IMG/VR virus record: IMGVR_UViG_3300027986_000009
From: an uncultured virus (IMG/VR IMGVR_UViG_3300027986_000009)
Lineage: Duplodnaviria > Heunggongvirae > Uroviricota > Caudoviricetes
DNA: 20,000 bases
Direction: 5' to 3' (one strand)
Below are positions 3,790 to 12,450 of this stretch, in pieces. The notes beneath the pieces were generated by a model. It was not told where the DNA came from. It saw only the letters and a list, made by a program, of their open reading frames with translations, and searched no databases. The stretch's first letter is position 1. Every line of letters begins with the position of its first letter. The translations under genes were made by a program, and so were the position numbers.

Positions 3790-5349
3790 TTATGCGTTCG
3801 GCGTCACGACGTAGCGGACGACGCAGAAGCCTGCGCCCGCGGCCGGAGCCCCTCCAACAGTGACCTGGATCGTAGCGGATGGCGTGAAGACGGTGTCCTG
3901 CGGCACCGAGTAAAGGCCCGCGGCCTGCGGGTTGTTGTTCGCCGTCGTCATGAGCAGGTTCGCTGTCGATGAGTTGCCGACCGCGATGGTGCCGCCCGCG
4001 CTGTAAGGCGTCACGACGTTAACTTGCGTCTCGATGACGATCGCGTTGTTCGGAAGCGTTGTCGCCGAGTTCTGCGTCGCGGAGTTGGTGATCGCGAAGC
4101 GGATCTCGAGTACGGCGGCGGCGCTAGGAGCGGCTCCCGTGGCGCCGGTTGTGCCGGTCGGTCCGGTCGACCCCGTGGGACCCGTGCTGCCAGTAGGTCC
4201 CGTAACGCCGGATGCTCCGGTGGGCCCGGTTCCGATCGCACCTGTGGCGCCGGTCGGTCCTGTGACTCCGCTTGCCCCGGTAGGACCCGTTCCGATGGCG
4301 CCGGTCGGTCCTGTGGTTCCTGTCGGCCCCGTCGGACCGGTGCCAAGAGCGCCCGTAGGCCCCGTGGGTCCCGTGCTTCCCGTCGGACCCGTTCCTAGAG
4401 CCCCGGTGGGTCCCGTGGGCCCAGTGACACCTGAGGCGCCCGTGGGGCCTGTACCGAGCGCGCCCGTAGGTCCTGTCGTCCCTGTGGGTCCGGTTCCAAG
4501 AGCTCCCGTCGGTCCCGTCGGCCCCGTCACACCGGAAGCACCCGTGGGTCCGGTTCCGACGGCTCCAGTAGGTCCGGTGGTGCCCGTCGCACCCGTCGGC
4601 CCTGTACCGAGTGCGCCGGTCGGTCCCGTTGGTCCTGTGTTTCCTGTGGGTCCAGTCCCTAGAGCGCCGGTGGGTCCCGTCGTTCCGGTCGGACCTGTTC
4701 CGAGAGCTCCCGTAGGGCCTGTACTGCCCGTCGGGCCCGTAACACCACTGGCACCCGTCGGGCCCGTTCCGACGGCGCCTGTTGCACCCGTCGGGCCCGT
4801 AGCGCCTGTGTTTGCGGCAGCACCCTGAGGGCCCGTAAAACCCGTGGCGCCAGTCGGGCCCGTGACGCCCGAAGCGCCGGTGTTCCCCGTGGGTCCAGTC
4901 CCGAGCGCGCCCGTTGGGCCGGTTGTTCCCGTAGGGCCTGTTGCGCCTGTCGATCCTGTGGGTCCCGTCCCCTGAGGACCGGTGAACCCTGTCGGTCCGG
5001 TTACGCCACTGGCGCCGGTTGGGCCGGTAAAACTTGCGCCGATTGTGCCTGTGGGACCGGTGAAACCTGTGGGACCTGTCGAGCCGGCGCCCGTGGGGCC
5101 AGTGAAACCAGTGGGACCTGAAGTGCCCGTGGGCCCCGTGCCTCCACTTCCGGTCGGACCCGTGTAGCCTGTGGGTCCCGTTCGGCCCGTGCTTCCGGTC
5201 GCGCCTGTGTTCCCGGTCGGACCGTTGGCAGGTCCCGTTGGTCCCGTCGCTCCGGTTCCGCTCGGTCCTCCTCCGTTGCCGCCGAGGCGAAGGAGGATGA
5301 GTCCCTCGAGTCGAGCGAGCTCCCCCGGTGTATTGCCCTGACCGATCAT
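3790..5349 (-). CDS. Collagen-like (Gly-X-Thr, BclA-like) fibre protein with a C-terminal globular beta domain (519 aa)
   Basis: ~375 aa of [15 protein letters not shown] triplets, a short N-terminal segment and a ~110 aa beta-rich C-terminal domain ([28 protein letters not shown]). Confidence 0.9.
4141..5265 (-). repeat. Collagen-like G-X-T coding repeat with recurrent G-A-[LVI]-G-T interruptions
   Basis: 9-bp periodicity at the DNA level with diverged synonymous positions; recurring protein units [11 protein letters not shown] and GASGVTGPT. Confidence 0.9.
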
Positions 5350-5865
5350 TTAGAACTGCTCGGTCACTTCGATTTGACAGCCGTGCTGCTGGATCACCAG
5401 CAGCGTCGAAGCGTCACCGAGCCCCACGGCGTTGAACTGCACTGGCGTGCCGACGGGAAAGATCACCGGCGCCGCGAGGTTGTAGTATTCGACGATGATC
5501 CCCCACGGCATCGAGGCGATCGACTCACCACCCGACGATGGGCAGAGCATCTGCGGGATCTGATAGTCAGTCGGCGTCGCGGCGCCACCATGACTCATGC
5601 TCATCGTGAAGAGATGGCCGTTGGTGGCGTCCGTGTTTGTCACGACGCCGGTGATGCGAACCGCAAGCTTACCGGTCAGTTTAGGCGTGATCGTGGCGCT
5701 GGCGATGATCTTGTTCGCTGCCGTCAGCGTGACGGGGGAGGCGCTCGCTTGCTCACCCCATGCGCTTGCCAGGAGGCCCCTGAGAGCTGCACCACCACCA
5801 CCATTGGGCAGGAAGAAGAGGGAGCGCCTGTCCGCGCCGGGCCCGATGGGGTAGCTGCCTTTCAA
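5350..5865 (-). CDS. Putative virion structural protein (beta-rich, ~171 aa)
   Basis: The ORF track starts at 5925, but TTG at 5865 follows a strong SD (GGAGAGGTG); its TAA directly abuts the collagen ATG. Confidence 0.65.
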   Translation of the reverse strand: MKGSYPIGPGADRRSLFFLPNGGGGAALRGLLASAWGEQASASPVTLTAANKIIASATITPKLTGKLAVRITGVVTNTDATNGHLFTMSMSHGGAATPTDYQIPQMLCPSSGGESIASMPWGIIVEYYNLAAPVIFPVGTPVQFNAVGLGDASTLLVIQQHGCQIEVTEQF

Positions 5866-5896
5866 GCGGTCACCTCTCCGTGGGGAGTCACGGATC

Positions 5897-10706: not shown

Positions 10707-10927
10707 GGGAGATTCCCCGGAAGCCTGAAGGTGAGGGCGCGCTCACGCAGTCGTCTCCCGTCGTCTGTAAACATGTAGTAGCCCTCTCCAAGGTTGTCGT
10801 GGCAACCGACGAGCCCGGCATCCTGAAGATCGATAGCGATGTCGATCGCACCTTCACCGATCGCGAAGATATCCTCCTCGGTGGCGCCCATACCGATGGC
10901 GTCGAGAACCTCTCTCATCATGCTCAT
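10703..10927 (-). CDS. Small hypothetical protein with a winged-helix-like C-terminus (~74 aa)
   Basis: ATGA/GTGA overlaps at both ends; DLQDAGLV...YYMFTDDGRRL resembles a wHTH wing. Confidence 0.55.
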   Translation of the reverse strand: MSMMREVLDAIGMGATEEDIFAIGEGAIDIAIDLQDAGLVGCHDNLGEGYYMFTDDGRRLRERALTFRLPGNLP

Positions 10928-12450
10928 CGGCAAGCCTCCTCCGCGCGCACAAGCTCCTCACCGAGCGAACACACTCCCGCTTCCACCGACTTACGCATGA
11001 TGGCGCACGCCCTCCGCGCTACCGCCTTGTCGCCCGCCTCGAGCGCATGCGCGATGAGGTTCCGAAGTGGTTGCTCCGGCCGCTCGCGCACCAAAGTGTA
11101 GTTCGTGACCATCTCGGCGTAGTCGCCGACGTACCAATCGAAGAGCTCCGGCCGGCGGTAATAGACGATGGGGAAGAGCTGCTCGTCGGCGTGGCCGTAG
11201 CCTTCGCCGAGGCAGTCGCAAAACGCTTGCTCGATCTCGAGGCAAAACTGCCGCATGGCGTGAACGCTTCCGGTGAAGAAACCGGAGCACATCGAGCAGC
11301 CAGCCGCGCAGTGTTGGCACCCTCCTTCGCCGAAATGTGCGTGCCAGTTCTGCGCTCTCCCCTTGCTGATGTAGTCGATCCAGCACGTCGAGAATCCGTC
11401 GCGGTCCTGAGCAAGAGCGTTCTGGAAGTGCACCAGGTTCTTCCATCCCATGCGCTCGATGCAGACGTTGACCCACGCGAAATGGCTGGAGTCGAAAGCG
11501 TTTGCGTCGATCGCCAGTCGCAACATCGCGTATCGCGCCATACAGAAGAGGTAGTAGCTGGCGGTGTTGCGCGGATCGCGCGAGCAAGCCCCCTGACCAC
11601 CTCGGTTCTCGATGATGCGCTGGCGAGCTCCCGAGAGCGGAAACGATTCGAAGTCGTATGGGATGACGAGCGTTCGGTTGCGCAGATGCTCTGGCCGCAG
11701 GCTCCATACCTTCTCCTCGAGCTCCGGATCGCAGAAGACGACGAGGTTGTTCGGCATCGCCAGCGTCGCGCGCCCGTGAACGTCGAGGTAATGCGAGGGC
11801 GGCCGAGAGCGCAGCTCGGGCGTCGCGTCCGTCTTGCCGGTGAGGTCGAAGTACCCGGTGACGAGGGTCCAGTTGTCGTTGCTCTTCGACTTGGGGAGCC
11901 TGGACGGATCGCGACAAACGATGCCGGTCCCTGACCAGTGCCCGCACTCGGTAACGTCGGCCTTGAACCGGTCGGGGATCTGGGACCAGCAGTTGTCGCG
12001 CATCGGCTTGAAGTACCAGATGTCGTCGAGGACGATGAGACCGTCGTATTTCTGATCGAGGAGCCAGCGGACGAGGGAGAGTTCGCGGGTACCCTCGTGG
12101 GGGTCGACGTCGATCAGGATGAGCGAGGAGCTGAGGAGTAGGTTTCGACACTCCTCACTCATCTGACCGTCGAAGAGATCGACGAGGCGATAGAAGACGT
12201 TGGTTGACGGTCGCTCGATCACCTTGCGAACGACATCGAAGGAGTGCGTTTCTCGGCCACCATAGGTGAGCGCCAACGCCGAATCGCCCAAGTGTGTCCC
12301 TATGTCGATGATGTGTCCCCCAACCTGAGTCGAAAGGTAGGCGAGCAACCAGTAGTGCTCATTTTTTGCCTGAAACACTGCAGGATCGCTCGCCATCGGA
12401 GCGAGCTCGGACAGATCGATAGCGTCGATCGCAGTACGAGAGAGAATCAT
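10924..12450 (-). CDS. Class I SAM methyltransferase (Methyltransf_24-like) fused to an HtrL/WlaTC-like glycosyltransferase domain (508 aa)
   Basis: IIDIGTHLGDSA, LILIDVDPH, IVLDDI; then WTLVTGYFDL, HFAWVN, GFFTG, HADEQL. Confidence 0.8.
   Translation of the reverse strand: MILSRTAIDAIDLSELAPMASDPAVFQAKNEHYWLLAYLSTQVGGHIIDIGTHLGDSALALTYGGRETHSFDVVRKVIERPSTNVFYRLVDLFDGQMSEECRNLLLSSSLILIDVDPHEGTRELSLVRWLLDQKYDGLIVLDDIWYFKPMRDNCWSQIPDRFKADVTECGHWSGTGIVCRDPSRLPKSKSNDNWTLVTGYFDLTGKTDATPELRSRPPSHYLDVHGRATLAMPNNLVVFCDPELEEKVWSLRPEHLRNRTLVIPYDFESFPLSGARQRIIENRGGQGACSRDPRNTASYYLFCMARYAMLRLAIDANAFDSSHFAWVNVCIERMGWKNLVHFQNALAQDRDGFSTCWIDYISKGRAQNWHAHFGEGGCQHCAAGCSMCSGFFTGSVHAMRQFCLEIEQAFCDCLGEGYGHADEQLFPIVYYRRPELFDWYVGDYAEMVTNYTLVRERPEQPLRNLIAHALEAGDKAVARRACAIMRKSVEAGVCSLGEELVRAEEACR

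Follow-up and report, generated by a model that had tools for sequence, protein, structure and literature searches.

A stretch of 20,000 nucleotides from an uncultured, soil-type member of the Caudoviricetes (IMG/VR record IMGVR_UViG_3300027986_000009), called the window below, carries at positions 3790-12450 a cassette of three fusion genes followed by a gene for a threonine-rich collagen-like protein. Probably, the three soluble fusion enzymes O-glycosylate the collagen-like fibre(s) of the very phage that encodes them. We base this proposal on the type of glycosyltransferase (GT) involved, on an architecture and gene position resembling those of C. difficile SgtA, on the conserved adjacency of enzyme and collagen genes, and on the enrichment of the enzyme near Thr-rich collagens. 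The analyses described here establish which domains the enzymes have, that they lack transmembrane (TM) segments, that the cassette belongs to a phage and that its linkage to collagen is conserved and Thr-dependent.

The window is a densely packed gene array, nearly all of it on the minus strand; the cassette genes all lie on that strand and are transcribed from high to low coordinates. In the order of transcription, they encode proteins of 508 (10924-12450), 422 (9438-10706) and 1161 (5956-9441) residues, a small open reading frame (ORF) of 171 residues (5350-5865) and the collagen-like protein of 519 residues (3790-5349). Pfam, hhalign and Foldseek together confirm the domain inventory originally read from the sequence, namely three S-adenosylmethionine (SAM) methyltransferase (MT), two GT2 and two HtrL-like domains, a tetratricopeptide repeat (TPR) domain and a beta-propeller. 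The co-orientation of the three fusion genes upstream of the collagen gene was also read correctly; they are not strictly "directly" upstream, as had been stated, because the 171-residue ORF lies between.

The five-domain enzyme

Domains 3 and 4 of the 1161-residue protein form a GT2-TPR core that, by sequence profile and modelled fold, is closest to peptide and protein glycosyltransferases. Domain 3 (residues ~505-680; 7402-7929) is a GT2 catalytic domain of the SunS/GmaR type, matched by PF00535 over residues 512-603 (44.3 bits) and by phrog_13126 (2.4e-28). A profile built from 13 full-length homologues, 55-60% identical, retrieved from the PDB SunS (5.2e-13), GmaR (1.6e-10) and ThuS-type 7msk (1.5e-6), with polysaccharide synthases ranking below. 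Residues D539, D544, D595 and D597 are invariant in the 13 sequences, and D595-A-D597 constitutes the DXD motif. Domain 4 (residues ~685-860; 6862-7389) is a TPR/helical repeat, recognised by Pfam at 687-732 (TPR_12/17/16/14), by the helices of the AF2 model (675-857) and by CTPR matches in the PDB profile search. The model has a pLDDT of 73.8 overall and mostly >80 over residues 505-1161. Top Foldseek matches for the core were SunS 7msp (1e-14, TMt 0.69) and ThuS-type 7msk (2.1e-14). Identity of SunS, ThuS and GmaR to the GT2-helical region is just 13-18%, and the SunS/ThuS equivalog model TIGR04195 scored 20.4 bits against a cut-off of 350. The core is thus, as modelled, SunS/ThuS-like in fold and outside their equivalog family.

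The C-terminal domain 5 (residues ~870-1161; 5956-6834) is a GH130-like five-bladed beta-propeller. Foldseek matched it to the GH130 mannoside phosphorylases 4udg (8.5e-9), 5b0q and 7fip and to the mannoside synthase 9eqq, with E-values of 1e-8 to 1e-7 and TMt of 0.5-0.64 (0.64 for 7fip), and tblastn matched it to phage genes annotated as beta-mannosyltransferase/MGP. The stretch E965-D966-C967-R968 is invariant in the 13 sequences; the catalytic Asp of GH130 enzymes, we assume, sits in an E-D-P-R-like motif.

The N-terminal half contributes two more domains. Domain 1 (residues ~30-220; 8782-9354) is a class I SAM methyltransferase, matched over residues 45-146 by Methyltransf_12 (PF08242, 31 bits against a cut-off of 30) and also by Methyltransf_23/25/11 models (PF13489 and PF08241 among them). 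Its GxGxG motif (E46/G48/G50) is invariant in the 13 sequences, and part of the domain is of low confidence in the model. Domain 2 (residues ~250-490; 7972-8694) is a second HtrL-like domain of GT-A type. It is invisible to Pfam and is revealed by profile-profile comparison alone: hhalign aligned 251-~490 with residues 192-458 of the 508-residue protein family (probability 94%, E 1.2e-7). Relatives of the HtrL-like domain are encoded in 403 viral stretches. The domain is common in IMG/VR GVMAG contigs (L012, L059, L063, L064 and L066), and in giant-virus MAG (metagenome-assembled genome) contigs it occurs either alone or with a GH130-like propeller in a protein of ~530 residues.

The ATG of the gene overlaps the stop codon of the preceding one. 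A 1232-residue version initiated at TTG is unlikely to use the real start because that ORF overlaps the upstream gene.

The two smaller fusion enzymes

The 508-residue protein joins an O-methyltransferase to an HtrL_YibB-like GT-A domain. Residues 194-329 match HtrL_YibB (PF09612) with 46.2 bits against a cut-off of 24.1. The N-terminus (4-183), for which Pfam gives nothing, has a class I fold of the cation-dependent O-methyltransferase type (PDB profile: 3tr6 4.6e-5, YrrM 9e-4). The AF2 model (pLDDT 92.8) retrieved CCoAOMT-type O-methyltransferases and SafC with Foldseek, as well as XXYLT1 (GT8) at 6.7e-6 over 315 columns. In VIA comparisons, the O-methyltransferase domain matched O-methyltransferases at Z 13-14 (best Z 14.1 with 157 residues aligned), and its nearest structures include the sugar O-methyltransferases SpnH (Z 11.3) and MeT1 (Z 11.4). 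Residues 190-463 matched BoGT6a (Z 11.4) and LARGE1 (Z 11.3), so that the modelled HtrL_YibB-like domain has a GT-A glycosyltransferase fold, the fold alone being no proof of activity. The family is large: 854 relatives at E<=1e-3 were found among the 8000 candidates scored.

The 422-residue protein begins with a GT2 domain (residues 9-108, PF00535, 46.2 bits) and ends with a putative SAM methyltransferase of the Methyltransf_24/CmcI-like type, whose PF13578 match (21.7 bits) falls under the cut-off of 26.3. Full-length relatives are 44-79% identical, and relatives of the C-terminal half bear PF13578 or PF04989. Single-sequence PDB searches with the 508- and 422-residue proteins came back empty, and BLASTP among the three enzymes detected no significant paralogy (best E 0.14).

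Two features are common to the three enzymes. Each of the three MT domains is fused to a GT-type domain, and none of the proteins has a TM or signal segment: in agreement with the original prediction, a hydrophobicity scan found no 19-residue window with TM-like hydrophobicity, except for one marginal window inside the GT2 fold. The absence of such segments, together with the tight packing of the genes and their co-orientation with fibre genes, supports a cytoplasmic pathway.

Phage-encoded GTs and MTs frequently act on the DNA of the phage, whose bases they glycosylate or methylate, as covered for T-even phages in the relevant part of the Chem Rev review. For the present cassette this role is extremely improbable: the MT domains match O-methyltransferase and small-molecule types and not DNA methyltransferases, a related phage (G002) has separate DNA methyltransferases elsewhere, and the cassette lies in a fibre module. 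Synthesis of a free or lipid-linked methylated oligo- or polysaccharide, for instance of the methyl-mannose type, not attached to collagen and serving replication or virion-associated material, is also very unlikely, if somewhat less so. It would fit the resemblance of the GH130-like domain to mannoside phosphorylases and synthases, the structural similarity of the O-methyltransferase domain to MeT1 of the methylmannose-polysaccharide pathway, and a multi-GT, multi-MT content that exceeds the needs of a single Thr-linked sugar; it leaves unexplained the TPR domain, the SunS/GmaR-type GT2 and the linkage to collagen.

The collagen-like fibre protein

The product of the 3790-5349 gene matches Pfam Collagen (PF01391) with E 1.1e-27 (96 bits against a cut-off of 27.2). 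The protein had been described as a G-X-T collagen with roughly 100 threonines; 126 of its 519 residues are Thr, and 70 of the 113 G-X-Y triplets in unbroken runs have Thr in the Y position. The gene is made of 51/102-nt tandem units, encoding 17-residue units each closed by a two-residue G-T break. The collagen region spans residues ~33-407 and is followed by a C-terminal domain of ~110 residues, also found in the related loci L009, L010 and L086.

The 171-residue ORF upstream is a real and conserved gene. It has GGAGAGG upstream of a TTG start, the corresponding Atlas sequence begins at the same start, and its stop codon abuts the ATG of the collagen gene. There are 86 relatives (30 at <=1e-10), and the domain forms the C-terminus of fibre-like proteins of 474-809 residues, making the ORF a stand-alone version of a fibre-tip-like domain. 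It shows no similarity to the collagen protein. Atlas feature matches (0.93) to clusters of the Bc2l-C N-terminal (TNF-like lectin) domain are a lead only.

Conservation of the enzyme-collagen pairing

To follow the pairing from the enzyme side, we collected 162 loci with relatives of the 1161-residue protein and counted as collagen any ORF with at least 10 triplets in runs of at least 6. Collagen ORFs were present in 19 of the 29 loci whose match spans GT2, TPR and propeller. After clustering of this core at 90% identity, with one cluster (L170) added from a separate scan, 12 of the 23 non-window clusters had a collagen ORF, at a distance of 850 nt or less in 10 cases. By comparison, 3 of 123 control loci, which match only the HtrL-like domain or HtrL plus propeller, had one (Fisher p 4e-9 versus 12/23; Fisher tests are uncorrected for relatedness, and the control loci are not de-duplicated, have lower GC and belong to a different type of virus). 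A scan of genome contigs gave only 4 loci, because its search patterns were derived from the MT and HtrL domains.

Among relatives that are 52-53% identical, the gene order is the same throughout, namely collagen, MT-HtrL or GT2-MT, the big enzyme, and a collagen with a phrog_9017-type tail-fibre C-terminal domain, all co-oriented and separated by gaps of 0-70 nt (L004, L005, L008 and L085). At 39% identity, L001 has three small collagen genes directly upstream of the enzyme, in a phage with SU10-type portal and capsid genes. On this 68-kb phage contig, a sulfotransferase, a Methyltransf_24 protein and a radical-SAM/SPASM protein are encoded around the GT2-TPR-propeller gene (7204-15174), a hint that collagen may be modified in other ways too, for instance by sulfation or cross-links.

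Six of the 12 collagen-positive clusters are low-GC loci at 27-34% identity, and in several of these the collagen gene is on the strand opposite the enzyme. Neighbours in L139 include PCNA, "minor capsid protein P2" (DUF5899), DUF5764 and DUF5824, the three DUFs being what we take to be giant-virus families; those in L150 include a DSHCT helicase, an ML domain and GT25. Going by these Pfam neighbours, the low-GC loci, at least L139, look giant-virus-like.

A separate low-GC subfamily (L130, L137, L162 and L153; 28% GC) encodes a 678-681-residue ORF, GT2-TPR-propeller by size and tblastn, together with a separate ORF of ~257 residues. Conserved ORFs of ~606-620 and ~193-213 residues adjoin and there is no collagen gene, so the target may differ in this subfamily. 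Possible alternative acceptor proteins are encoded in L087 (1368-1949) and L154 (3166-3834). The ORFs in question are not collagens, contain 13-18% Thr and 14-18% Ser, and are found upstream of the GT, adjoining it in L087 and ~6 kb away in L154.

Dependence on threonine

The reverse test started from collagens. Viral contigs were sampled with a (GPT)3 DNA pattern and a composition-neutral ten-glycine pattern and de-duplicated to 243 clusters, and their ORFs were searched with a hidden Markov model (HMM) of the 13 homologues. A GT2-TPR ORF was found in 19 of the 218 collagen-bearing clusters and in none of the 25 without collagen. Over four bins of Thr content in the Y position the counts were 2/70, 1/34, 4/30 and 12/84; thus, at a content of at least 40% Thr in Y a GT2-TPR ORF was present in 16 of 114 clusters versus 3 of 104 below (odds ratio 5.5, p 0.0036). 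The pattern-neutral sample alone gave 4/28 versus 1/85 (p 0.013). The GT2-TPR ORF lies within 3.4 kb of the collagen in 17 of the 19 cases.

We inspected six of these loci. In all six, the GT ORFs are members of phrog_13126 with 351-401 residues (a longer fusion in L382) and lie amid tail-fibre, virion-structural, portal, major-head or sheath genes. The GT adjoins a nucleotide-sugar epimerase in L326 and an aminotransferase in L382.

The pairing also occurs in deposited phages. In Tunturi_5, the GT (gp35) is 3.7 kb from a collagen-containing tail fibre (gp29, 110 G-X-Y triplets). Between them (L442, 9388-12806) are four paralogous proteins of 282-286 residues, gp30-gp33, which look like an array of exchangeable fibre-associated proteins. 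In DSL-LC01, two Thr-rich collagen genes lie at 3-5.5 kb from the GT, and methyltransferases and a UDP-galactopyranose mutase are encoded nearby. An annotated tryptophan halogenase is encoded between the collagen genes and the GT, and a second GT is close by (L462, 7433-9004 and 15805-17941); the mutase and the second GT suggest galactofuranose in the glycan of that phage.

A number of results weigh against our proposal, in addition to the unevenness of the forward control and the sub-threshold methyltransferase match of the 422-residue protein mentioned above. Eleven of the 23 clusters have no collagen ORF, and six of them (L087, L130, L137, L154, L162 and L170) lack it despite 5.6-20 kb of flanking sequence. 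A collagen ORF lies within 10 kb at just 2 of the 10 places where relatives occur in Acidobacteriota genomes; 9 of 401 sampled genomes carry such relatives of the GT2-TPR-propeller, consistent with a mobile, patchy gene. A GT is present in just 14% of the Thr-rich collagen loci. Two of 99 HtrL-only loci have a collagen, so that the accessory enzymes are not generally collagen-linked. The MT-HtrL family had no match in 139 GPT-collagen loci; this family and the big enzyme share many metagenome contigs, judging by the matching lengths of their longest contigs. The propeller gave no Pfam match at E<=0.01 and no phmmer-versus-PDB match at E<=10 that would provide a GH130 sequence signature, and the domain could be a phosphorylase or hydrolase instead of a transferase. 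Adjacency alone could also be positional, given that GTs and collagens are both common in hypervariable tail-fibre regions. The dependence on Thr suggests that the link is functional, which argues against the positional account without excluding it. Support for the claim that the enzymes glycosylate the phage's own fibre is indirect, coming from GT type, SgtA-like architecture, synteny and Thr enrichment; as an inference, the claim is well supported.

Some of the same observations would suit enzymes that glycosylate other virion proteins (capsid, tail tube or non-collagen fibres) instead of or besides collagen. In Lu11 and PaBG, the GT2-TPR genes belong to the structural module, flanked by tail genes and head genes, and no collagen is encoded in the surrounding 9 kb; the six clusters with long collagen-free flanks, the Thr/Ser-rich neighbours of the GT in L087 and L154 and the several fibre-type genes of the window could be read likewise. 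We judge this unlikely, considering that the Thr-in-Y dependence and the 0-70-nt spacing in the closest relatives point to collagen as the usual partner and that SgtA is a direct precedent for action on collagen repeats.

Viral context and other genes of the window

The proteins of the window are encoded on a 77-kb contig. The closest relatives of the 1161-residue enzyme (52-53% identity) are encoded on four IMG/VR records that CheckV rates 95-100% complete, with lengths of 76.7 kb (a provirus), 87.8 kb, 116 kb (with terminal repeats) and 117.7 kb. The 76.7-kb record, G002, has an integrase, endolysins, Sak4, ParB, helicases, DNA methyltransferases and thymidylate synthase, and PHROGs leaves most of its structural genes unrecognised. 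The Pfam models Terminase_6N, SU10 portal and Phage_capsid_4 each matched 0 of 5 related records; the SU10 portal model also missed all the control genomes and is uninformative. As had been surmised, the source is a bacterial virus, since its close relatives are CheckV-complete phage or provirus records; that it is temperate is well supported. Whole-window megablast against deposited phages returned no match.

Downstream of the collagen gene are a gene for a 134-residue protein (3384-3788, minus strand) with a tail-fibre C-terminal domain (phrog_9017, 3.2e-14), a domain that forms the C-terminus of collagen ORFs in the relatives L004, L008 and L085; a gene for a Laminin_G_3 protein; and a partial gene (2-1132, minus strand) for a protein with an N-terminal phrog_9017 tail-fibre domain (1.4e-14) and a GDSL/SGNH esterase (Lipase_GDSL_2, 1.4e-10). 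These three genes identify the region as a tail-fibre module. Taken together, the phrog_9017 domains of the window, the hallmark genes of G002 and the CheckV records identify the source as a temperate tailed phage and the window as its tail-fibre module.

The relatives being temperate, with an integrase in G002, the cassette might be thought to modify host surface polysaccharide, such as lipopolysaccharide (LPS) O-chain or core or exopolysaccharide, for lysogenic conversion or superinfection exclusion. The name HtrL/YibB comes from an E. coli gene, presumably located in the LPS-core gene region. This is moreover how phage GTs are usually read: PHROGs classes phrog_13126 as moron/auxiliary metabolic gene (AMG), the pelagimyophage paper, in the parts concerned with hypervariable-region GTs, interprets them so (PMC7029224), and the Tunturi paper, where it lists AMGs, includes GTs (PMC11924767). 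Several features of the cassette make such a role improbable, however. TM segments are absent from the enzymes, and the Pfam scan showed neither a flippase nor a GtrA-like partner; the genes are inside the fibre module and co-oriented with fibre genes; the closest structural relatives use peptides or proteins, not lipid-linked glycans; and the association varies with the Thr content of the neighbouring collagen. Glycosylation of the fibre is the reading that we retain.

Outside the cassette, a 535-residue protein (16071-17678, minus strand) is a candidate CgeB-like (Glyco_trans_1_2) glycosyltransferase, its PF13524 match (E 0.0012) lying below the cut-off, and possibly belongs to the system as an additional GT. 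Atlas feature matches (0.93, 211 shared features) to Glyco_trans_1_2/CgeB clusters are a lead only, and a single-sequence PDB search gave nothing meaningful. The CgeB family presumably has a role in spore-surface maturation.

Just upstream of the cassette, three small minus-strand genes (12460-12939, 12936-13502 and 13999-14562) encode proteins with no family match. In two of them the N-terminus contains a lipobox-like sequence (…LTGC…, …LLAGC…), and one carries a TM segment at its C-terminus; the lipobox-bearing ones could be spanin-like lysis or exclusion lipoproteins. At the window edge there is a pentapeptide-repeat protein (19253-19999, minus strand; PF00805, 3e-27), and the "Decapeptide repeat" match of the plus-strand ORF at 18977-19999 is probably a mirror of that repeat on the opposite strand. 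The sole sizeable intergenic gap in the cassette, 217 nt (10707-10923) between the 508- and 422-residue genes, contains no promoter, terminator or Rfam match. A promoter/terminator scan of 3000-13000 found nothing above shuffled expectation, and neither Rfam families nor tRNAs were detected in scans covering the window.

Comparison with known systems and proposed pathway

Pairs of a collagen and a Thr-glycosyltransferase of the SgtA/BclA3 type are already known, as is virus-encoded glycosylation of a virus's own virion. Some mycobacteriophages reportedly use phage-encoded GTs to glycosylate their own virion proteins; the targets there are said to be capsid or tail-tube proteins, not collagen fibres.

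The closest parallel is SgtA of C. difficile, a 358-residue protein with a GT-A domain and four TPRs, encoded immediately upstream of the gene for the exosporium collagen-like protein BclA3; the recombinant enzyme transfers beta-O-GlcNAc from UDP-GlcNAc onto Thr of collagen-repeat peptides (as described for SgtA in PMC7157674). Compared by architecture, as far as that description goes, both systems have a soluble protein with a GT-A (GT2-like) domain followed by TPRs and a Thr-rich G-X-Y collagen gene as neighbour. In the 1161-residue protein, the GT-A domain has a DXD motif, the TPR is C-terminal to it, and the collagen gene is nearby (5956 versus 5349, with the small ORF between). Stand-alone phage GT2-TPR versions (351-401 residues, phrog_13126) match SgtA in size. 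SgtA belongs to a spore-coat system, whereas the window enzyme is viral; its GT2-TPR is fused to MT, HtrL-like GT-A and GH130-like propeller domains and is accompanied by two more GT-MT fusions. The best profile and fold matches of the GT2-helical region, the glycocin S-glycosyltransferases SunS and ThuS and the Listeria flagellin O-GlcNAc transferase GmaR, all glycosylate peptides or proteins in the cytoplasm. Apart from their low identity, they differ in the acceptor, which for the window enzyme we propose to be a collagen triple-helix repeat; no flagellin gene turned up among the window ORFs in general family scans.

Fusions of GT and methyltransferase also have a viral precedent. A064R of PBCV-1 is a virus-encoded soluble enzyme (GT, GT and methyltransferase) whose substrate is a structural protein of the virus itself: it assembles the capsid glycan and 2-O-methylates it. 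In the section of the Chem Rev review devoted to it, it is called "one of the few" enzymes with three transferase domains. Likened to the window enzyme from that description, it differs in making an N-linked glycan on the major capsid protein of a eukaryotic virus with a GT34-like domain and a new GT family; the 1161-residue enzyme comprises five domains, TPR and GH130-like propeller among them. Mimivirus L230 (lysyl hydroxylase/glucosyltransferase) and R699, as far as the source portrays them, are viral enzymes that glycosylate a viral collagen-like protein, by hydroxylysine-linked chemistry as in animals, whereas the window has a Thr-rich collagen and no hydroxylase was seen.

On these grounds we envisage a cytoplasmic pathway that would act before or during virion assembly. 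The TPR of the 1161-residue protein would hold the G-X-T repeat and its GT2 (GT-A) domain would start the glycan on an exposed Y-position Thr, a step modelled on the action of C. difficile SgtA on BclA3. The two HtrL-like GT-A domains, the second GT2 and the GH130-like propeller, possibly a beta-mannosyl transferase or phosphorylase, would then lengthen the glycan. Lastly, the three SAM methyltransferase domains would O-methylate sugars and may cap the chains as A064R of PBCV-1 does. The putative extension and methylation roles are suggested by domain type, by fusion to GTs and by the A064R precedent, and the capping by the MT-GT fusions. We infer the substrate, the order of the steps, the sugars and the methylation target in this scheme, and likewise its benefit, which may consist in triple-helix stability without hydroxyproline, shielding from proteases or antibodies, or adhesion.

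Implications

What is new in the present system is that it is viral, that one protein fuses five domains, four of them putative transferases, and that three methyltransferase domains are present; in addition, the core module is apparently common to tailed phages and giant-virus-like contigs. A direct report of phage collagen-fibre glycosylation was not found in the literature searched, whose coverage leaves out most subscription journals. More tentatively than for the window itself, we suggest a dedicated collagen O-glycosylation module common to tailed phages and giant viruses, in which an SgtA-like GT2-TPR initiator decorates Y-position Thr and the glycans are, in the present case, O-methylated; we would put this broader idea at rather less than an even chance. 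In such a module, the GT2-TPR protein would often be fused to or paired with a GH130-like propeller and HtrL-like GT-A domains, and the helix would be stabilised by the glycan in place of hydroxyproline, with the fibre shielded by it as well.

Very few cases of own-virion glycosylation by bacterial viruses are on record, and phage GTs are routinely annotated as host-surface or DNA modifiers; our reading calls the host-directed AMG label of such GTs into question. The pairing in two deposited phage genomes, Tunturi_5, whose record names a host strain (Tunturiibacter psychrotolerans), and DSL-LC01, makes bench work conceivable. If our interpretation is correct, the system would offer soluble enzymes for glycosylated, methyl-capped recombinant collagens, and it would explain how viral collagen fibres devoid of hydroxyproline might be stabilised and masked. 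The pair of GT2-TPR and Thr-rich collagen would be a general, testable rule for the whole PHROG family and a link between phage and giant-virus glycobiology. If the broader idea of a shared module holds, many phage GTs now filed as host-directed AMGs or morons (phrog_13126 and neighbours in hypervariable tail-fibre regions) would be virion-maturation enzymes.

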